This document shows, piece by piece, positions 3,406 through 21,736 of a stretch of 44,545 bases of DNA. The position numbers and the translations under genes were made by a program. The notes below the pieces were generated by a model. The model was not told where the DNA came from and made no database searches. It was given only the letters and a program-made list of their open reading frames with translations. This DNA comes from Escherichia phage 6948. Numbering within the stretch: position 1 is the first letter of the stretch; each line of letters starts with the position of its first letter. The stretch lies in sequence record OL362272.1; one strand, 5' to 3'.

Positions 3406-3555
3406 ATGAAAAAGCTGTTCAAATCTAAGAAGGTTGTAGGTGCACTAGTTGCATTGGCAATTGCTCTTGTTTCTGTAGGTCTTGGTGTAGACCTTGGCTC
3501 TGGCACGGAATCCTCTGTGACAGATGTGGTCTGCCAAGTGATCACCTGTGAATAA
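3406..3555 (+). CDS. small single-TM membrane protein, possible lysis accessory
   Basis: 49 aa, RBS GGGAGG 8 nt upstream; basic N-terminus then hydrophobic helix VVGALVALAIALVSVGLGV; absent from the ORF track because <60 aa. Confidence 0.35.
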   Translation: MKKLFKSKKVVGALVALAIALVSVGLGVDLGSGTESSVTDVVCQVITCE

Positions 3556-3769
3556 GTTTCTAGAAGTTCTGGCAGGTCTTATTGGCCTGCTTGTCTCTGC
3601 TAAGAAGAAACAAGAAGAGAAGGAGGCACAAAGTGAAGCGAATCATGTTAGTGACAACCCTTCTGATTGGTTCGCTGACCACTTCCGGGTGTCAGCAGGC
3701 GTTACCAGAGAAAGCAATGGTGAAACCCCTGAGGCCGACGCTGACGGCAGTTTACGAGGTAGACGATAA
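3548..3769 (+). CDS. putative i-spanin (Rz-like)
   Basis: 73 aa, GTG start overlapping the previous stop; N-terminal hydrophobic helix FLEVLAGLIGLLVSA then charged region; the o-spanin-like frame is partly embedded in it. Short for an Rz, so tentative. Confidence 0.35.
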   Translation: MNKFLEVLAGLIGLLVSAKKKQEEKEAQSEANHVSDNPSDWFADHFRVSAGVTRESNGETPEADADGSLRGRR

Positions 3770-3842
3770 GGTCTGCTTTAGTAAGCCTGACGCTACAAAA
3801 CTTGGTTTGTACATTCTCTCGCTAGAACGCGGATACAATTAA
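3633..3842 (+). CDS. putative o-spanin (Rz1-like outer-membrane lipoprotein)
   Basis: GTG start with AGGAGG 8 nt upstream; signal peptide KRIMLVTTLLIGSLTTSGC with lipobox LTTSG|C, Pro-containing short mature part; overlapped arrangement with the preceding frame is typical of Rz/Rz1. Confidence 0.55.
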   Translation: MKRIMLVTTLLIGSLTTSGCQQALPEKAMVKPLRPTLTAVYEVDDKVCFSKPDATKLGLYILSLERGYN

Positions 3843-3871
3843 TACATAGCTTTATGTATCAGTGTCTTACG

Positions 3872-3894
3872 ATTTACTGGACACTATAGAAGAG
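3872..3894 (+). promoter_or_regulatory. phage-RNAP promoter upstream of tailspike 1
   Basis: ATTTACTGGACACTATAGAAGAG. Confidence 0.75.
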
Positions 3895-3973
3895 GTAAGA
3901 TAGCGCCGTTCTTTTGAGCGGCCTATTACTAGCCAATCTTCATAGGGAGGGTTGGAAAGTAATAGGAGATAGC

Positions 3974-5872
3974 ATGGCTAAATTAACCAAACCTAATACT
4001 GAAGGAATCTTGCATAAAGGACAATCTTTGTATGAGTACCTTGATGCGAGAGTTTTAACATCAAAGCCGTTTGGTGCTGCAGGTGACGCCACTACTGATG
4101 ATACGGAGGTTATAGCTGCTTCATTAAACTCTCAGAAAGCTGTCACAGTCTCAGACGGTGTATTCTCTAGCTCTGGTATTAATAGTAATTACTGTAACTT
4201 AGACGGCAGGGGTAGTGGCGTGCTAAGTCACCGTTCAAGTACAGGTAACTACTTAGTATTTAACAATCTACGTGCAGGTCGCTTAAGTAATATTACGGTA
4301 GAAAGTAATAAGGCGACTGATACAACTCAGGGACAGCAGGTATCCCTTGCTGGTGGAAGTGATGTTACTGTAAGTGACGTTAACTTCTCAAACGTTAAAG
4401 GTACTGGTTTCAGTTTAATCGCATACCCTAATGATGCGCCACCGGATGGACTTATGATTAAAGGCATTCGAGGTAGCTATTCCGGCTATGCTACTAATAA
4501 GGCAGCCGGATGCGTACTTGCTGACTCCTCAGTTAACTCCCTCATAGATAACGTCATTGCTAAGAACTACCCTCAGTTCGGAGCAGTAGAGTTGAAAGGT
4601 ACAGCCAGTTACAACATAGTCAGTAATGTTATAGGGGCAGATTGCCAGCATGTAACTTACAACGGCACTGAAGGGCCAATAGCTCCTTCTAATAACCTTA
4701 TCAATGGGGTGATGGCTAATAACCCTAAGTATGCAGCGGTTGTTGCAGGCAAAGGGAGTACTAACTTAATCTCAGACGTGCTCGTAGATTACTCAACTTC
4801 TGATGCTAGGCAGGCTCATGGTGTTACCGTAGAGGGATCTGATAACGTCATAAATAATGTGCTTATGTCAGGATGTGATGGTACTAACTCTTTAGGACAA
4901 GGGCAGACTGCTACAATTGCACGCTTTATAGGTACAGCTAATAACAACTATGCGTCTGTATTTCCTAGCTACAGTGCTACAGGTGTTATTACTTTCGAAT
5001 CCGGCTCTACCCGTAACTTCGTAGAGGTAAAGCACCCTGGCAGGAGAAACGACATTCTCAGTTCTGCTAGTACTATTGACGGTGCAGCTACTATTGACGG
5101 CACTAATAATAGTAACGTAGTGCACGCACCTGCCTTAGGGCAGTACATAGGTAGTATGTCAGGTAGGTTCGAATGGCGGATTAAGTCCATGTCACTCCCT
5201 TCAGGTGTTCTTACTTCTGCTGATAAGTACAGAATGCTTGGAGATGGTGCTGTGTCATTAGCTGTAGGTGGGGGCACTTCTTCTCAAGTTCGCCTATTTA
5301 CTTCTGATGGTACTTCTCGGACAGTGTCCATCACCAACGGTAACGTGCGTCTTTCTACCAGTAGCACAGGCTATTTGCAGTTAGGTGCTGATGCAATGAC
5401 CCCAGATAGTACTGGTACATACGCATTAGGTTCCGCCAGTCGAGCATGGTCTGGCGGTTTTACTCAAGCAGCATTCACTGTTACCTCAGATGCTCGGTGT
5501 AAAACAGAACCTCTTACTATCTCAGATGCATTACTAGATGCTTGGTCTGAAGTTGACTTTGTGCAGTTTCAGTATTTGGATCGTGTTGAGGAGAAGGGTG
5601 CAGACTCAGCTAGATGGCACTTCGGTATCATCGCTCAGCGAGCTAAGGATGCCTTCGAACGTCACGGTATAGATGCACATCGCTATGGCTTCTTGTGCTT
5701 CGACAGTTGGGATGATGTATACGAGGAAGATGCCAATGGCTCTCGTAAACTGATTACACCAGCAGGTTCCCGCTACGGTATTCGTTACGAGGAAGCACTG
5801 ATATTAGAGGCTGCGTTGATGCGGCGGACTATTAAGCGTATGCAGGAAGCACTAGCTTCCCTGCCTAAGTAA
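3974..5872 (+). CDS. tailspike 1: beta-helix capsule depolymerase with C-terminal intramolecular chaperone (peptidase S74-like) domain
   Basis: 632 aa from ATG 3974 (RBS AGGAG); Ser/Thr/Gly/Asn-rich beta-helix-like repeats; C-terminus TVTS-DARCK...LDAWSEVDFVQFQYLDR...WHFGIIAQ matches the autoproteolytic chaperone module of endosialidase/K5-lyase-type tailspikes. Confidence 0.85.
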   Translation: MAKLTKPNTEGILHKGQSLYEYLDARVLTSKPFGAAGDATTDDTEVIAASLNSQKAVTVSDGVFSSSGINSNYCNLDGRGSGVLSHRSSTGNYLVFNNLRAGRLSNITVESNKATDTTQGQQVSLAGGSDVTVSDVNFSNVKGTGFSLIAYPNDAPPDGLMIKGIRGSYSGYATNKAAGCVLADSSVNSLIDNVIAKNYPQFGAVELKGTASYNIVSNVIGADCQHVTYNGTEGPIAPSNNLINGVMANNPKYAAVVAGKGSTNLISDVLVDYSTSDARQAHGVTVEGSDNVINNVLMSGCDGTNSLGQGQTATIARFIGTANNNYASVFPSYSATGVITFESGSTRNFVEVKHPGRRNDILSSASTIDGAATIDGTNNSNVVHAPALGQYIGSMSGRFEWRIKSMSLPSGVLTSADKYRMLGDGAVSLAVGGGTSSQVRLFTSDGTSRTVSITNGNVRLSTSSTGYLQLGADAMTPDSTGTYALGSASRAWSGGFTQAAFTVTSDARCKTEPLTISDALLDAWSEVDFVQFQYLDRVEEKGADSARWHFGIIAQRAKDAFERHGIDAHRYGFLCFDSWDDVYEEDANGSRKLITPAGSRYGIRYEEALILEAALMRRTIKRMQEALASLPK

Positions 5873-5878
5873 GCAACA

Positions 5879-5901
5879 GGCAGTGCGTAAGCACTGCTTT
5901 T
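5879..5901 (+). terminator. intrinsic terminator between the tailspike genes
   Basis: Stem GGCAGTGC / GCACTGC(T), GTAA loop, then TTTT. Confidence 0.5.
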
Positions 5902-5958
5902 CACGCAACTTTTTCTTAAAGGTTATCATGGTGGTAGCCTTTCAGAAAAGGAGGTTAC

Positions 5959-7671
5959 ATGCTTCAAAGATTAAGTGCTTACTTGGTGAAGTACAAGAGT
6001 AAACTAACAGGTACTATTGAGCGCCTGCTATCTGATAAACTATCGGATACAATAGATGTTGCGGATTTTGGAGTTACTCCATCTTCCAATGACAACAGGC
6101 AAGCACTTCAAGCTGCGTTCAATGCAGTCAGAGTGTTAGGCGGTGGCACTGTATTAGTCACTAAAGCTGGAAAATACAAACTCAGTGGTACTGTTGAGAT
6201 ATTTGCTAATACACACTTCAAGGTGGCTAAAGGTGTAACATTTGTACGTGACTACGAAACAGGAGATACGCTATTCAGATTATCACAAGGGCAAGCTAGT
6301 AATGTAACAGTCAGTGGAGGTATCTATGAAGGCAATGGTCACACTAAGGGAGATACACCTTTTGTAGTATTTGCATCTACTAGTAATAATGATTTGAAGT
6401 TTGAAGGCATAACAGTTAACAATGTAGTGGACTACCACGCCATAGATTTAGCAGATTGGAACAACGTAGTTATTCGTGATTGTAAATTCCTAGGTTTTAA
6501 GAATACAGGCAGTCGTAACTTCTCAGAGGCTATACAGTTAGACCCAGGTCTTATTACAGTTGGTCACTATGTACAGTCAAGTGGTATGCTGGTGGAGAAT
6601 TGCTATGCTGGTCCAAACACAGAATCAGGGTTTGGAGGTTATGGTGCACTAATTGGAAATCACGCCTCAGCTTACGGTGTACAGGACAACAATATCCGTA
6701 TCTTGAATTGCACTACAGATGGTGCTCTCTTTGCAGGTGTACGTGTATTTAACTGGAAAAACTGGACAGTGCGTGGTTGCACATTTAGGAACTCTAATGC
6801 AAGAGGTGTCCATGTTACACCTGTCTCATCTCAGACTAAACCGCAGGGTACTCGACAAGGTAGTATTGTAGATTGCACTTTTGATGGCGTAAGGACACCA
6901 GTGCTAATTGCTGCACCATCTTGGCCTTTTACCGATATTAGTGACATTTGGCATGACCATATTGAAATTTCTAATAATACTATGATCCTCACAGAGGATG
7001 TATCCTATGGTGTAGATGCAAGGTGGTGTAAGAATTTAATTGTAAAAGGTAATACAGGCTCTGGTGGCTTAGGGTTAATCGGTTTACGCTTTGGGACAAA
7101 ATACCACATCGAAGGTAATACTTGGGAAAACGGAAGAGGTAGTGGGATTTGGTTAGGTGAGTCTGATGCTACTACATTCATTGGTACTGGTTTATCAGGA
7201 GAAGGTATACTTAGTCGTAATATCTTCTCTAAATTAGGGCAATATGGTATTCATGTAAACTGCAAGGCTAGCTGTCTAGTGATTAAAGCCAATAATATGA
7301 AGGAAGTATCTACAGCTGAAGCAGGTAGGCACTTCATTAGTATAGACACAGGGGCTAACAACATCCTAGTAGAAGGTAATATTGGAGTAGACGGAGAAAG
7401 CCCTAACAAGCCAAGCCTTGGTATTCGTGTTACTTCTTCTTGTTCCAATATTAAACTCATTGGCAATGATTGCTATGGCACACAGGCGCCTCAGAATAAC
7501 CAAGGAGTTGGTTCTAGTACGGTGATTGTTTATGGGCTAAATGGCAACCCTACAACTTTAGGCGTAGGTGCACCTGTAGGCTCTTTAGCAACTGATATCA
7601 ATGGTTCTGGTGGTAGTACATTGTACGTTAAAGAATCTGGTACATCTGCTCAAGGTTGGGTTGCAAAGTAG
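5959..7671 (+). CDS. tailspike 2: pectate-lyase-like right-handed beta-helix depolymerase
   Basis: 570 aa, RBS AAAGGAGG; N-terminal DVADFGVTPSSNDNRQALQAAF...GGGTVLV resembles the start of pectate-lyase-3/GH28-like phage depolymerases; repetitive NxxVxG/GN turns. Confidence 0.75.
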   Translation: MLQRLSAYLVKYKSKLTGTIERLLSDKLSDTIDVADFGVTPSSNDNRQALQAAFNAVRVLGGGTVLVTKAGKYKLSGTVEIFANTHFKVAKGVTFVRDYETGDTLFRLSQGQASNVTVSGGIYEGNGHTKGDTPFVVFASTSNNDLKFEGITVNNVVDYHAIDLADWNNVVIRDCKFLGFKNTGSRNFSEAIQLDPGLITVGHYVQSSGMLVENCYAGPNTESGFGGYGALIGNHASAYGVQDNNIRILNCTTDGALFAGVRVFNWKNWTVRGCTFRNSNARGVHVTPVSSQTKPQGTRQGSIVDCTFDGVRTPVLIAAPSWPFTDISDIWHDHIEISNNTMILTEDVSYGVDARWCKNLIVKGNTGSGGLGLIGLRFGTKYHIEGNTWENGRGSGIWLGESDATTFIGTGLSGEGILSRNIFSKLGQYGIHVNCKASCLVIKANNMKEVSTAEAGRHFISIDTGANNILVEGNIGVDGESPNKPSLGIRVTSSCSNIKLIGNDCYGTQAPQNNQGVGSSTVIVYGLNGNPTTLGVGAPVGSLATDINGSGGSTLYVKESGTSAQGWVAK

Positions 7672-16837: not shown

Positions 16838-17521
16838 ATGTATAAATTAGTATTGAATGTAGGTGATTATGTTCGTAACATCAATGTAACCTCACGTAGA
16901 TATCGTTGCCGTGGTACTGTGACTAATGTAAGTGAAAACAGCTACTATGTAGAATACAGTAATGGTATTAGACAGGCTTATCAAAAGGAATCAGCACATA
17001 ACTACCTTGAGAAGATTGGAGAGGTAAGCAATCAATGTAAGTGCGTACACGATGAGATTTGCGATAAGTGTGCCCGCCAGCTGCATAAAATGCTATTATA
17101 CCCTCTTCGCTATGGTGCTGGTGTTCAAACATTAGCAGAGGCATATGGCAAAAGTAAGACCACACTCAAGAAAGAGCGCCGCAATGTAATCACTGGTAAG
17201 ACTCAAAGTGAAATGATTAAACTATGTGGCACTGCATTAGGTGTTACGCAGTTTAATACTCGTTCATTGGGTAAATCCACAGGGCAAGCTATGGTAAAGA
17301 TTGGCGAAGCCATGATGCATCCAAATGTACCTGTACGAATCATGGATGTTGACCATGCAATCACAGAACACGGTACGCAACGACGTGTAATTAATAAGCA
17401 TTTTGCCGACACTATAGAAGGTATTATTCGTAAGCAAGAGTTGAAGGGTCTTCACATCTTAAATGGTGAAGAATTACTGTACCTACCTATCGTTACTGAA
17501 GAAACCTACGTGAATATCTAA
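16838..17521 (+). CDS. hypothetical protein
   Basis: 227 aa from ATG 16838 (GGAG 9 nt upstream); Cys cluster CKCVHDEICDKC. Confidence 0.5.
   Translation: MYKLVLNVGDYVRNINVTSRRYRCRGTVTNVSENSYYVEYSNGIRQAYQKESAHNYLEKIGEVSNQCKCVHDEICDKCARQLHKMLLYPLRYGAGVQTLAEAYGKSKTTLKKERRNVITGKTQSEMIKLCGTALGVTQFNTRSLGKSTGQAMVKIGEAMMHPNVPVRIMDVDHAITEHGTQRRVINKHFADTIEGIIRKQELKGLHILNGEELLYLPIVTEETYVNI
17400..17422 (+). promoter_or_regulatory. variant phage-RNAP promoter
   Basis: ATTTTGCCGACACTATAGAAGGT; upstream half diverges. Confidence 0.4.
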
Positions 17522-18081: not shown

Positions 18082-18286
18082 AGTCAGTAAGGTTTGCTCT
18101 TGCGGTAAAGGTTATCGCAGTCGTATTGATGGTAAGTGTGGACATTGTAGGTCTAAGAAAGAGGCTGCTTTGTTTGACAAGTACCACAATGAATTAGCCT
18201 ATAACTACCCACATCTAACACCTAATTCTTTATTAGGGCTTGGTTATAGGGCTAAATACTTTGGAGCAATCTATGAAATCAATTGA
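18068..18286 (+). CDS. small zinc-ribbon-like protein
   Basis: 72 aa from ATG 18068; CxCG...CGHC motif. Confidence 0.4.
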   Translation: MKTIKVSKVCSCGKGYRSRIDGKCGHCRSKKEAALFDKYHNELAYNYPHLTPNSLLGLGYRAKYFGAIYEIN

Positions 18287-20819
18287 TTGGAAGAAGGAGG
18301 CAGAAGGTCGTATCCTCGTGATGGATGCGGAAGCTAAAGGACTCCTTGACGCTATCCGATATGGACACCGTGAAGATGTGCATATCATTTGCTGCATGGA
18401 TTTGCTTACTACCGAGGAGTTTCTCTTCTTTGACCCGTATGAGATGCGTGACCCTGAAGCAAGAGAACGCCTGAAGGAATGGGAAGGTCATCAAGACGGA
18501 ACCTTGGTTGATGGTGTTAACTTCCTGAAGCATTGTGAAGCTATTGTGTCACAGAACTTCCTAGGGTATGACGGACTTCTCTTTGAGAAAGCATTCCCTG
18601 ATATTTGGAAAGGCTTTAACTATACCGAGAAGCGCGGTAAGGGCAGACTCCGTGCTGACCTGTGTCCGGTGCGAGTCATGGATACGCTGGTGATGAGTCG
18701 CCTGTTAAACCCCGATAGACGCCTTCCTCCGCAAGCATATGCCAAAGGTATGGGTAACGTCGCCCCTCACTCAATTGAGGCGCACGGCATCCGTATAGGT
18801 CGCTATAAACCGGAGAACGAGGACTGGTCTAAACTAACTGACCACATGGTTCACCGTGTACGTGAGGACGTGGCGATTGGTCGTGACTTGTTCCTCTGGC
18901 TCTTTAACGGGGAATGGATGGAGCACAAACGCCGTGGCGTGAATAAACGCACGGGCCTAGGCATTGAGACAGCCTTCCACATGGAGTCCATTGTGGCGCT
19001 GGAGATGAGCCGTCAGGCCGAGCGCGGGTTCCGTCTGGACATCGACAAGGCTTTGGCCCGATGCGAAGAATTGGACGCTAAGATTGATGAGACAGTCGCA
19101 GCGTTCCGCCCTCACATGCCTATGCGTATCAAGTCTAAACCTTTTAAACCGGAAGAAAAGAATGAAGTATGCCAACGCGCAAATGAGTATGGAGCTAGCA
19201 ACAATATACCTACTGTCCTTGACCCCTCACACTTTCTTCATGCCGAGAGACGAGGAGATCGCAAGACAGTATGGAGTGTCACTACTAAGTCTGGTGATTG
19301 GTCGGCTAGTGTCAAGAAAGACTTTCCTCACCTTAGAGGAAACCGTAATGACACGCCAAGCATCAAGTGGATTGGCGCTTACTCGCCTGTTACTTTCGAA
19401 GAGATTCCCTTGGGTAACAGGGATACAGTTAAGCAAGTGCTCTATGAGTATGGATGGAAAGGTGTTGAATTTAACGATACCGAGCAAGCTCATCTCGATG
19501 AGCACGGAGTGTTACCAAAACCTTGGAGTGGTAAGATAAATGAAAAGTCCCTCACTTTATGGCAAGAAAGAGCCGCACGTGAAGGTAAAACAGTCCCTGA
19601 TTGGTGCTTGGGTATCGCTGCATGGTACATACTCGTATCCCGTCGTGGTCAGATACTCAACCGTGGTGACGTTGAAGCCTTCAACGAGAAGGGAACGTGG
19701 CCCTCGCAGGCTGGTGTACGAAAGTGTCGCGGCCTTGTACCTGTAGCATTCAACAAGGAGCTAGGAATCAATGCGCAGCAATACTACGAGAGGTACGGAT
19801 GTTGGCCTACGTCTGACAAAGATGACGGAGAGTGGCGTGTTCCAGCTGTTGCTATTAGTATTGGCACTTCTACGTTCCGTATGCGTCATCGTAACGTGGT
19901 TAATATTCCTGCCCGTGGCTTGTATCCTTTACGTGATTTATTCATAGCAGGGAAAGGCAAGCTAATCCTTGGTTGTGACGGTGCAGGTCTTGAACTGCGT
20001 GTCCTGTCTCACTTCATGAATGACCCTGAGTACCAAGAGATTGTACTGCACGGTGATATTCATACGCATAACCAGATGAAGGCTGGTCTTCCTAAGCGTG
20101 ATATGGCGAAGACGTTTATATACGCCTTCCTCTATGGTTCTGGTATAGCCAACCTTGCAGCAGTCTGCGGTGTTACTGAGGAAGAAATGAAGGAAGTTGT
20201 GGCAAGATTCGAGATTGAACTACCGTCTCTTGCACGTCTTCGTGAGAATGTTATCGCACAAGGTAACAAGTTTGGCTACCTGCAAGCACCTGACGGGCAT
20301 TGGGGTCGCATCCGCATGTCTGGTGGTGAACTTAAAGAGCACACGATGCTTAACGTATTACTCCAGATGACTGGCTCTTTGTGTATGAAATATGCATTAG
20401 TCAAGGCATTTGCAGTAATGCGCAAGGAAGGTGTAGCTTTGGATGCTATGGGAAATCCTTGTGGTGTGGCTAACGTGCATGATGAAATCCAGATGGAAGT
20501 TCCTGAAGAGGAGGTCTTGTATCTTAACTACGACCTACCTTTCACCTTAGATGGGTTCGAAACAGAGAAGGCTGCTGTGAAAGCAGTTTTCGATGCAGAG
20601 GAGAAACGTGTTCATGTGGATTCTGAAGGACGTATGTGGTCTGCTGCAAACCTCGTTAGCGTTGATGCTGATGCTGGTGTATTGCATTGCCAGCGCCGTT
20701 ATCACCGTGCAGGTCATATCATTGCCGACGCCATGACTTGGGCAGGGCAGTATCTGAAGATGCGTTGCCCGATGGCAGGAGAATATAAGATTGGCGCAAG
20801 CTGGAAGGAAACACACTGA
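18273..20819 (+). CDS. DNA polymerase, family A
   Basis: 848 aa from ATG 18273 (GGAG upstream); motif A DGAGLELRV, motif B KTFIYAFLYGSG, motif C VHDEIQ; N-terminal exonuclease-like acidic residues. Confidence 0.9.
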   Translation: MKSIDWKKEAEGRILVMDAEAKGLLDAIRYGHREDVHIICCMDLLTTEEFLFFDPYEMRDPEARERLKEWEGHQDGTLVDGVNFLKHCEAIVSQNFLGYDGLLFEKAFPDIWKGFNYTEKRGKGRLRADLCPVRVMDTLVMSRLLNPDRRLPPQAYAKGMGNVAPHSIEAHGIRIGRYKPENEDWSKLTDHMVHRVREDVAIGRDLFLWLFNGEWMEHKRRGVNKRTGLGIETAFHMESIVALEMSRQAERGFRLDIDKALARCEELDAKIDETVAAFRPHMPMRIKSKPFKPEEKNEVCQRANEYGASNNIPTVLDPSHFLHAERRGDRKTVWSVTTKSGDWSASVKKDFPHLRGNRNDTPSIKWIGAYSPVTFEEIPLGNRDTVKQVLYEYGWKGVEFNDTEQAHLDEHGVLPKPWSGKINEKSLTLWQERAAREGKTVPDWCLGIAAWYILVSRRGQILNRGDVEAFNEKGTWPSQAGVRKCRGLVPVAFNKELGINAQQYYERYGCWPTSDKDDGEWRVPAVAISIGTSTFRMRHRNVVNIPARGLYPLRDLFIAGKGKLILGCDGAGLELRVLSHFMNDPEYQEIVLHGDIHTHNQMKAGLPKRDMAKTFIYAFLYGSGIANLAAVCGVTEEEMKEVVARFEIELPSLARLRENVIAQGNKFGYLQAPDGHWGRIRMSGGELKEHTMLNVLLQMTGSLCMKYALVKAFAVMRKEGVALDAMGNPCGVANVHDEIQMEVPEEEVLYLNYDLPFTLDGFETEKAAVKAVFDAEEKRVHVDSEGRMWSAANLVSVDADAGVLHCQRRYHRAGHIIADAMTWAGQYLKMRCPMAGEYKIGASWKETH

Positions 20820-20935
20820 TGGATAGGCTTGACATTATTTGCCTATTCTTCACTCTCTTTCTTACACTCCTTATGCTTGCTTGTTATGGGAGTATGAGAC
20901 TAGATATACCTGATGAAGAAGAGGGTTACGACTAA
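20819..20935 (+). CDS. small membrane protein
   Basis: 38 aa, ATGA overlap with the DNAP stop; hydrophobic helix. Confidence 0.25.
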   Translation: MDRLDIICLFFTLFLTLLMLACYGSMRLDIPDEEEGYD

Positions 20936-21033
20936 TGCAAACTGCTTTTATTATTCTTGGTATCATATTATTTATGGTAGTACTCTGGGCCTTCTCTGGC
21001 ATTGACCCAGATTGTGATGGTAACTACGACTGA
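20935..21033 (+). CDS. small membrane protein
   Basis: 32 aa, TAATG overlap; hydrophobic helix FIILGIILFMVVLWAF. Confidence 0.25.
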   Translation: MQTAFIILGIILFMVVLWAFSGIDPDCDGNYD

Positions 21034-21092
21034 GTTATACTCAAGGTCACTTACGAGTGGCCTTTATGAATAACTTAACTGGAGGAAATATA

Positions 21093-21650
21093 ATGAATGA
21101 ACTGAACACTAAGATGCTCAAGAAAGTTTATAATCTTGTATATAGTATCACGGGCCTACAATTCTACCCTGTAGGCGGTGCGGTTCGTGACACCCTGTAC
21201 GGATTAACACCTAAAGACTATGATATGGTGTTGCCTGTAGGGTCTATGGCAGATTCTCAGGCGCACGAAATCATGGAAAATATCTCTGAAGAGATGGCAA
21301 TTATGGGATTTAGTACCAAACTCTACCAATCATACGGTATCAATTTAGGTTATGAAATCAACCCTACCTCTTTTCAGGCTATGTTCCTTAGCTGCATGAA
21401 AGTGCAGATGCGTAATTGCCAACTTGATTTGCTTCTTTCTAAGGCTGAAACCATCCAAGATCATGTACGTAAGCACGATTGCAATATGAATATGGTGTGG
21501 TTCGATGGTAAAGATATCAAGTGGGAGCACGGCGGTGTTACTCCTTTCGTTCCTGTGTTAGAGTTCAACCCTGACGGATGTGATCGTCGCATTGCTTACA
21601 TGGACAAGAAGCGCCATGAACTTATCCGTCACAAATTAATGCATCTTTGA
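21093..21650 (+). CDS. polymerase-beta-superfamily nucleotidyltransferase, CCA-adding-enzyme/poly(A)-polymerase head-domain-like
   Basis: 185 aa from ATG 21093 (GGAGG 8 nt upstream); YPVGGAVRDTLYGLTPKDYDMVLPVG matches the GGxVRD...DxD signature of class II tRNA nucleotidyltransferases. Confidence 0.6.
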   Translation: MNELNTKMLKKVYNLVYSITGLQFYPVGGAVRDTLYGLTPKDYDMVLPVGSMADSQAHEIMENISEEMAIMGFSTKLYQSYGINLGYEINPTSFQAMFLSCMKVQMRNCQLDLLLSKAETIQDHVRKHDCNMNMVWFDGKDIKWEHGGVTPFVPVLEFNPDGCDRRIAYMDKKRHELIRHKLMHL

Positions 21651-21672
21651 TTTACCGGACACTATAGAAGGA
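21650..21672 (+). promoter_or_regulatory. phage-RNAP promoter
   Basis: ATTTACCGGACACTATAGAAGGA. Confidence 0.75.
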
Positions 21673-21736
21673 AGTCCTAGGTAATCTAGGTTTATAAGGT
21701 AGTATAGGTAATTAAGTAAATATAGGAGATATAAAC

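Follow-up and report, generated by a model that had tools for sequence, protein, structure and literature searches.

A predicted stand-alone class II-type nucleotidyltransferase behind the DNA polymerase gene of Escherichia phage 6948

Class II tRNA nucleotidyltransferases and poly(A) polymerase I (PAP I), as represented by PDB entries 3aql, 4wby, 1miv and 1ou5, extend RNA 3' ends by template-independent addition of ribonucleotides, to our knowledge in every case that has been characterised. In the CCA-adding enzymes, motif D (EDxxR) acts as an amino-acid template that chooses CTP or ATP, C then A, and in class II enzymes the two arginines of motif B help to read the ribose. The nucleotidyltransferase (NTase) described here is encoded by Escherichia phage 6948 (OL362272.1), whose whole analysed stretch of 44,545 nucleotides is referred to as the window. 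With the class II enzymes it shares motif A, a presumed acidic triad and the aspartate and asparagine of motif B, whereas it has less than half their length, is acidic, and lacks EDxxR, the arginine pair of motif B and the body and tail domains for RNA binding.

The phage proteins collected in PHROG 1614 include Gp22 of fHe-Kpn01, gp28 and gp24 of the Pectobacterium phages PP47 and Q19, gp16 of Vibrio phage VP93 and the NTase of Pseudomonas phage LKD16. Common to the window NTase and this family are a size of 160-230 aa, the core GG..RD..KDxD, D112, the motif [F/H]DCNxN and R166, together with the predicted fold (TM 0.6-0.85) and a neighbourhood close to the polymerase gene in podophages of 40-46 kb. 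Identity to most members is only 24-39%, and the window NTase differs from the family elsewhere in being rare within Vectrevirus and among E. coli phages.

Several other small NTases invite comparison. The stand-alone CCA-adding head of Streptococcus pneumoniae (NP_344798.1, PDB 2la3, 191 aa) showed no sequence relationship to the window protein in the PDB searches. MenT and AbiEii (DUF1814) toxins, which extend tRNA 3' ends, belong to another NTase family and act as host toxin-antitoxin or abortive-infection modules, whereas the window NTase is phage-encoded and has no evident antitoxin partner; this identity was rejected for want of a sequence match, a DUF1814 match in Pfam and an adjacent antitoxin, and by lower fold scores. 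MNT-like NTases of the phages BCP1 and Av05 counter TIR-STING by producing competitor cGAMP and c-di-AMP (bioRxiv 10.1101/2022.06.09.495361). Like the window NTase, these are small, phage-encoded members of the Pol-beta superfamily located among accessory or anti-defence genes; their motifs GS-x-AY[GAN]T-x4-SDxD and NP-x-hh[DE] are absent from the window protein and from the family alignment, and the lack of these defining motifs led us to reject this identity as well. An MNT antitoxin was likewise rejected (no Pfam NTP_transf_2/MNT match, no HEPN partner gene nearby, motifs of class II), as was a CD-NTase or cGAS-like synthase (no Pfam or PADLOC match, fold scores lower than for class II).

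Gene, predicted fold and conserved residues

The gene and the motifs of its product are located in the window as follows.

21093-21650, plus strand: coding sequence of a 185-aa protein, predicted to be a stand-alone class II-type nucleotidyltransferase (head and first neck helix)
21081-21085, plus strand: ribosome-binding site GGAGG, 7 nt 5' of the ATG, read directly from the sequence
21165-21230, plus strand: motif A, GG-x-V-R-D ... K-D-Y-D (aa 25-46), with D42 and D44 as catalytic positions by conservation and by alignment to Cca
21426-21428, plus strand: codon of D112, presumed third catalytic carboxylate, kept in 140 of 149 family members and located on beta-strand 110-116 of the model
21468-21497, plus strand: degenerate motif B, RKHDCNMNMV (aa 126-135), aligned by hhalign to KRRDLTINAL of Cca
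21573-21590, plus strand: motif-D-like start of the C-terminal helix, DGCDRR (aa 161-166), in a low-confidence alignment to EDPLRVLR of Cca

The reading frame runs from the ATG at 21093 to the TGA at 21648-21650. A 185-aa ORF with a ribosome-binding site had been proposed at this place in an earlier, sequence-only reading, and its coordinates proved exact, with GGAGG standing seven bases before the ATG; the peptide YPVGGAVRDTLYGLTPKDYDMVLPVG, cited there as the class II signature, corresponds to residues 25-50. A longer reading from a GTG at 21057 is available, but since the homologues begin 2-4 residues ahead of the conserved L9-K10, the ATG is the likely start. That the region is non-coding or the frame a chance ORF was ruled out by the PHROG 1614 match (E 2.7e-39), by 24 close homologues with E-values as low as 1e-113, by the 211 clusters described below, and by a dN/dS of 0.147 against the orthologue of Klebsiella phage KpnP_VR702, which is 93% identical. 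The gene is under purifying selection.

Among the profile searches, Pfam PolyA_pol (PF01743) passed marginally, scoring 23.5 bits where 23 are required (E 7.6e-5) and covering aa 25-84 only, and it also matched 21 of the 24 close homologues at E <= 0.01. The match to PHROG 1614, labelled 'nucleotidyltransferase', covers nearly the whole length (aa 19-174). An AlphaFold2 model built from the 24 homologues (pLDDT 91, pTM 0.86) predicts a Pol-beta-like head fold nearest to class II enzymes, and every one of the top 39 Foldseek matches in the PDB is either a class II tRNA nucleotidyltransferase or poly(A) polymerase. When aligned by hhalign to a profile of Cca relatives, residues 22-181 extended over residues 1-152 of E. 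coli Cca (Prob 94.7%, E 6e-8), that is over the head and the first neck helix, whereas just 28 columns aligned to the single Cca sequence; within the profile alignment the stretch 60-116 is unreliable. The RNA-binding domain PolyA_pol_RNAbd (PF12627), which real Cca fragments do carry, was not matched in the Pfam scan. For two homologues that are 74-76% identical (P0002 and P0003), the precomputed annotation gives PF26128, and our own Pfam scan gave PolyA_pol only.

By these profile matches and the predicted fold, the protein is assigned to the class II nucleotidyltransferases of the PolyA_pol head type, as a member of PHROG 1614, and it appears to be a stand-alone class II catalytic core composed of the head domain and one neck helix. 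The sequence-only reading, which had recognised the head of a class II tRNA nucleotidyltransferase or poly(A) polymerase and had named an HMM search and structure prediction as ways to check it, is thus borne out on both sides: PF01743 (23.5 bits) and PHROG 1614 were matched, and the predicted structure shows a pol-beta-like fold with class II heads as its nearest neighbours and with the acidic triad kept. Its term 'head-only' holds for the lack of body and tail domains and has to be amended for the first neck helix, which the coverage of Cca 1-152 includes.

Other searches returned less. Single-sequence and profile searches of the PDB aligned motif A alone, and the designed repeat protein Ika8, which came up in the profile search, was discarded as spurious, with no domain passing individually. 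The PADLOC scan gave no match, and the NCBIfam scan gave just sub-threshold matches at motif A. The CCA models of NCBIfam scored 10.9-25.4 bits against cutoffs of 290-624, the best being NF009811 with 25.4 bits against 469; a bona fide CCA-adding enzyme was rejected because EDxxR is missing, body and tail are absent, the neck is reduced to its first helix and the protein ends at about residue 152 of Cca. PAP I (PcnB) was rejected on the scores of TIGR01942 and NF008634 (26.2 bits, cutoff 305.65) and on the absence of basic RNA-binding domains.

Residue conservation was counted in an alignment of 149 family members. Motif A is nearly identical between the NTase (GGAVRD...KDYD) and E. coli Cca (GGAVRD...KDRD), and within the family G28, G29, D42 and D44 are invariant (149 of 149), with D33 kept in 145 members and R32 in 135. 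The third carboxylate had to be mapped by pattern, because it falls into the stretch for which the hhalign alignment is unreliable: D112 stands in the context LDLLLSK, comparable to YEVTTFR and EEYALAR of class II enzymes, and probably occupies the position of their catalytic glutamate, so that D42, D44 and D112 would form the expected acidic triad. This mapping agrees with the equivalent h[DE]h motif assigned in fHe-Kpn01 Gp22 (PMC7291057).

In motif B, K127-H128-D129-C-N-M-N133-M aligns to RRDLTINA; the aspartate and the asparagine are kept (D129 in 142 of the 149, N133 in 139), and both arginines are replaced family-wide by x-[F/H], a loss that makes the use of NTP versus dNTP uncertain. 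Motif C is loosely retained in the hhalign alignment (G..IKWEHGG in the NTase, G..IDPYNG in Cca). Motif D is not kept as EDxxR: P-D-G-C-D-R-R is aligned there, with a cysteine or a variable residue at the position of the selecting arginine, and R166, which is conserved in 143 of 149 members and belongs to the C-terminal helix 164-184 of the model, aligns with low confidence to a later arginine of the motif D region of Cca. Altogether, the residues conserved across the family are G28, G29, R32, D33, G37, P40, K41, D42, D44, G72, Y81, F94 and D112 and, further along the chain, [F/H]128, D129, N131, N133, G139, P151, R166 and K173. The close subfamily has YQSYG, NPTSFQ and WEHGG as additional invariant stretches, which are not conserved across the whole family. 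With a median pI of 5.1, a median net charge of -8 and about 1% of the 149 sequences above pI 8, the family is acidic (pI 6.4 for the window NTase), which is unexpected for enzymes presumed to hold RNA unaided.

Distribution of the family and the slot behind the DNA polymerase gene

The NTase family is an already known and annotated accessory family of Autographiviridae. By tblastn the gene is present in 231 phage records from several subfamilies of Autographiviridae, including 59 from Pectobacterium, 57 from Klebsiella, 44 from Vibrio, 24 from Aeromonas and 16 from Proteus, with Dickeya, Erwinia, Yersinia, Providencia and others as further hosts, and in many of these records the product is named poly(A) polymerase, tRNA nucleotidyltransferase or simply nucleotidyltransferase. 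Structural twins with lengths of 145-254 aa (TM 0.6-0.85) occur across many Autographiviridae, among them podophages of Providencia, Pectobacterium, Yersinia, Dickeya, Aeromonas, Vibrio, Pantoea (LIMEzero), Pseudomonas (LKD16 and phiNV3), Ralstonia and Caulobacter. A profile search among 1.84 billion representatives returned 211 clusters (50% identity) at E <= 1e-3, nearly all of 160-230 aa, and for seven of ten sampled clusters the longest contig measured 40-46 kb, the genome size of Autographiviridae.

The family had also been described in the literature: it was reported in 37 of 46 Autographiviridae phages of Pectobacterium and in 60 of more than 500 others (PMC7693777), a point that PMC8472413 repeats, and Gp22 of fHe-Kpn01 (182 aa), which is 28% identical to the window NTase by BLASTP (E 7e-20), was found to be toxic when expressed in E. 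coli, the same three motifs being noted (PMC7291057). The sequence-only reading knew of no head-only NTase as a standard module of T7-supergroup phages, a view that does not stand against PHROG 1614, the 231 records, the structural twins and these three publications. Our literature search found no biochemical or anti-defence characterisation and no substrate or product for the family. As a discovery from the window the NTase adds little, as the identical protein is already deposited in GenBank and the family has been discussed. The family is, however, widely distributed among those podophages of Klebsiella, Pectobacterium, Vibrio, Aeromonas and Proteus that are candidates for therapy; defining its activity would show what a class II head does without specificity domains, and could reveal a mechanism of host takeover or counter-defence.

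The window comprises the complete genome of a Vectrevirus (K1-5/K1E-like; Autographiviridae, Molineuxvirinae). Its NTase region is 99.7% identical to that of Escherichia phage 6949, whose protein is 100% identical; there, as in E. coli phage records generally, the product is annotated as a hypothetical protein. Upstream of the NTase gene lie the DNA polymerase ORF (18240-20819) and two tiny hydrophobic ORFs, and the slot is framed by the following elements.

21031-21077, plus strand: two-tier RNA hairpin forming the left cassette boundary just 5' of the ribosome-binding site (dG -18 kcal/mol, z -3.1)
21652-21676, plus strand: phage RNA-polymerase promoter ATTTACCGGACACTATAGAAGGAAG, the right cassette boundary, directly 3' of the NTase stop codon
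17408-17420, plus strand: nearest upstream phage promoter core, from the promoter scan

Both boundaries are independent of the gene between them. The hairpin is kept in KpnP_VR702 and also in VEc3, which has no NTase; it looks like an RNase III processing site of the T7 type and is present with or without the cassette. The promoter on the right, with its core GACACTATAGAAG at 21658-21670, is likewise common to phages with and without the NTase. This SP6/K1-5-type core occurs at 15 sites between 100 and 41120 of the window, where 1.4 are expected; eight are exact and seven carry 1-2 mismatches, and some of those with two mismatches, including the sole one on the minus strand, may be chance matches. 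Since the previous core stands at 17408-17420 and the next one follows the NTase stop, the NTase gene is predicted to be the last cistron of the DNA polymerase (middle-gene) transcription unit.

The content of the slot (20819-21676) varies between related phages. Only six out of 90 related records contain most or all of the NTase region at high nucleotide identity; VEc3 and many others are without exactly the stretch from hairpin to promoter; ULINTec7 has an unrelated 86-aa ORF in its place (positions 590-850 of locus L008); and a truncated 101-aa NTase remnant (P0024) fills the slot on a contig of 44.5 kb. In the Klebsiella Molineuxvirinae phage KpnP_VR702, by comparison, an NTase gene with 93% nucleotide identity directly follows the DNA polymerase gene. 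Because the slot may be empty or hold another ORF, a remnant or the NTase, we regard the gene, by genome comparison, as a dispensable, horizontally exchanged accessory cassette of Vectrevirus and not as a core replication gene. These Vectrevirus variants, with the cassette present, absent, truncated or replaced by another gene, also provide natural comparison material for the question of the substrate.

In all four inspected loci, which represent four subfamilies and include the window, the NTase gene is found near the DNA polymerase gene: in the Drulisvirus fHe-Kpn01 it overlaps the polymerase stop codon, in Vibrio phage VP93 it is one gene downstream, and in the Phimunavirus CB5 it is about 0.7 kb upstream. 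In VP93 (positions 3414-6044 of locus L006) a MazG-like pyrophosphatase is encoded three genes downstream of the NTase. T7-like phages have a general hot spot for accessory genes of host interaction 3' of the DNA polymerase gene, which in T7, behind gene 5, is occupied by the host-interaction genes 5.5, 5.7 and 5.9; for this reason, the position next to the polymerase says little about the function of the NTase.

Possible activities of the enzyme

The conserved core residues, the presumed acidic triad and the dN/dS of 0.147 make it very probable that the NTase is an active enzyme under selection. Among the three functions suggested in the sequence-only reading, namely 3'-end repair of tRNA, nucleotidylation of a host protein and synthesis of a nucleotide signal, the data single out none. 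We tentatively propose, as a possible though by no means assured function, that the NTase of this accessory cassette tails RNA 3' ends without CCA specificity and thereby harms the host, possibly together with a partner. RNA tailing is the most economical reading because all characterised class II enzymes known to us act in this way. The catalytic core would add nucleotides, template-free and with no specificity for CCA, to the 3'-OH of tRNA or other host RNA, and a host or phage partner may supply the binding of RNA. Uncontrolled tailing would disturb the function or turnover of host RNA, which would explain the toxicity of Gp22 in E. coli, and the enzyme would then act in taking over the host or countering its defences, not in DNA replication itself.

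Several points weigh against this proposal. Broad inactivation of tRNA would hurt the phage too. The acidity (family median pI 5.1) would be unusual for an enzyme that binds RNA unaided, the RNA-binding body and tail are absent, and the loss of the motif-B arginines leaves the preference for NTP or dNTP uncertain. Because the protein is acidic and has no RNA-binding domain it may need an RNA-binding partner or act on something other than RNA. It is also possible that the toxicity of Gp22 instead reflects depletion of NTPs, poisoning by a nucleotide product or the sequestration of a host protein.

The same features lead to a second reading, in which the NTase works on small molecules: by linking or altering free nucleotides it would produce an alarmone-like compound, a modified nucleotide, or a signal serving as decoy or competitor, and would thereby disturb nucleotide-based immunity or metabolism of the host. 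This would suit an acidic enzyme that has no nucleic-acid-binding domain, and it has a precedent in the competitor cGAMP and c-di-AMP made by a different small phage NTase family (bioRxiv 10.1101/2022.06.09.495361); the MazG-like pyrophosphatase of VP93, three genes past the NTase, is a further point in its favour. We nevertheless consider it unlikely, as the MNT-type motif of those published phage NTases is absent here and PADLOC gave no match. In addition, we know of no class II enzyme that makes cyclic nucleotides. More generally, a new activity of the class II fold in place of RNA tailing or CCA addition, either a small nucleotide product that poisons host signalling or serves it as a decoy, or a replisome-related role such as the capping of tRNA-ACCA or of primer 3' ends or the use of dNTPs, is a doubtful prospect; if true, the activity would have been kept next to the DNA polymerase gene throughout Autographiviridae, and it would account for the toxicity of Gp22.

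Repair of the tRNA 3'-CCA, by which the phage would rebuild ends damaged by host exonucleases or by tail-cutting defences, is the function implied by the many database records that call the protein a tRNA nucleotidyltransferase, and CCA- and A-adding enzymes are indeed among its nearest structural relatives. Defence systems that cut the tails of tRNA are known, e.g., Cas12a3 (PMC12851939), and the enrichment in the phages of certain hosts (37 of 46 in Pectobacterium, PMC7693777) would fit a host-specific counter-defence. However, EDxxR is not conserved, the body and tail domains that measure tRNA are missing, and the NCBIfam scores fall far under their cutoffs; the host already owns Cca, no tRNA genes were found in the window, and the toxicity of the homologue Gp22 is unexpected of a repair enzyme, which together render CCA repair quite improbable.

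A replication-linked role would have the NTase add to DNA 3' ends or primers, or extend the ACCA-3' of tRNA to block mispriming. It could draw on the location of the gene, which adjoins the DNA polymerase gene or lies within about 0.7 kb of it in the four subfamilies inspected and appears from the promoter scan to be co-transcribed with it here, and on the loss of the ribose-reading arginines of motif B, by which the use of dNTPs becomes possible. T7 reportedly requires gp5.5 together with H-NS to mask the priming of replication by tRNA (Zhu et al. 2012, PNAS). Position is weak evidence, however, in a region that is an accessory hot spot, and most Vectrevirus genomes do without the gene; we regard this role as very unlikely. 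Finally, a protein modifier that AMPylates or nucleotidylates a host protein, or an MNT-type neutraliser of a toxin, would match a minimal, acidic enzyme of Pol-beta fold and MNT-like size that has no RNA-binding domain, but with no HEPN partner nearby, no Pfam NTP_transf_2/MNT match and class II motifs, it is the reading to which we give the least credence.

Neighbouring genes and genome layout

The two tiny ORFs directly 3' of the DNA polymerase gene overlap each other (20819-20935, 38 aa; 20935-21033, 32 aa) and encode strongly hydrophobic peptides with acidic tails (MDRLDIICLFFTLFLTLLMLACYG... and MQTAFIILGIILFMVVLWAFSG...); they are conserved in VEc3 and appear as hypothetical proteins in relatives. 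Just 3' of the NTase, the 125-aa protein encoded at 21737-22114 matches PHROG 7450, 'polysaccharide chain length determinant protein', with an E-value of 6e-70, an odd label for a gene of the replication module, and probably a wrong name passed on between annotations. With regard to MazG-like enzymes of phages, Atd1 has been reported as an anti-TIR-STING factor and is found near a different phage NTase family. The window opens with the large terminase subunit (297-2198), followed by two different tailspike genes (3914-5872 and 5959-7671), and because of this start the record is rotated relative to the usual T7-like map; the dual-tailspike arrangement is typical of K1-5-like phages.
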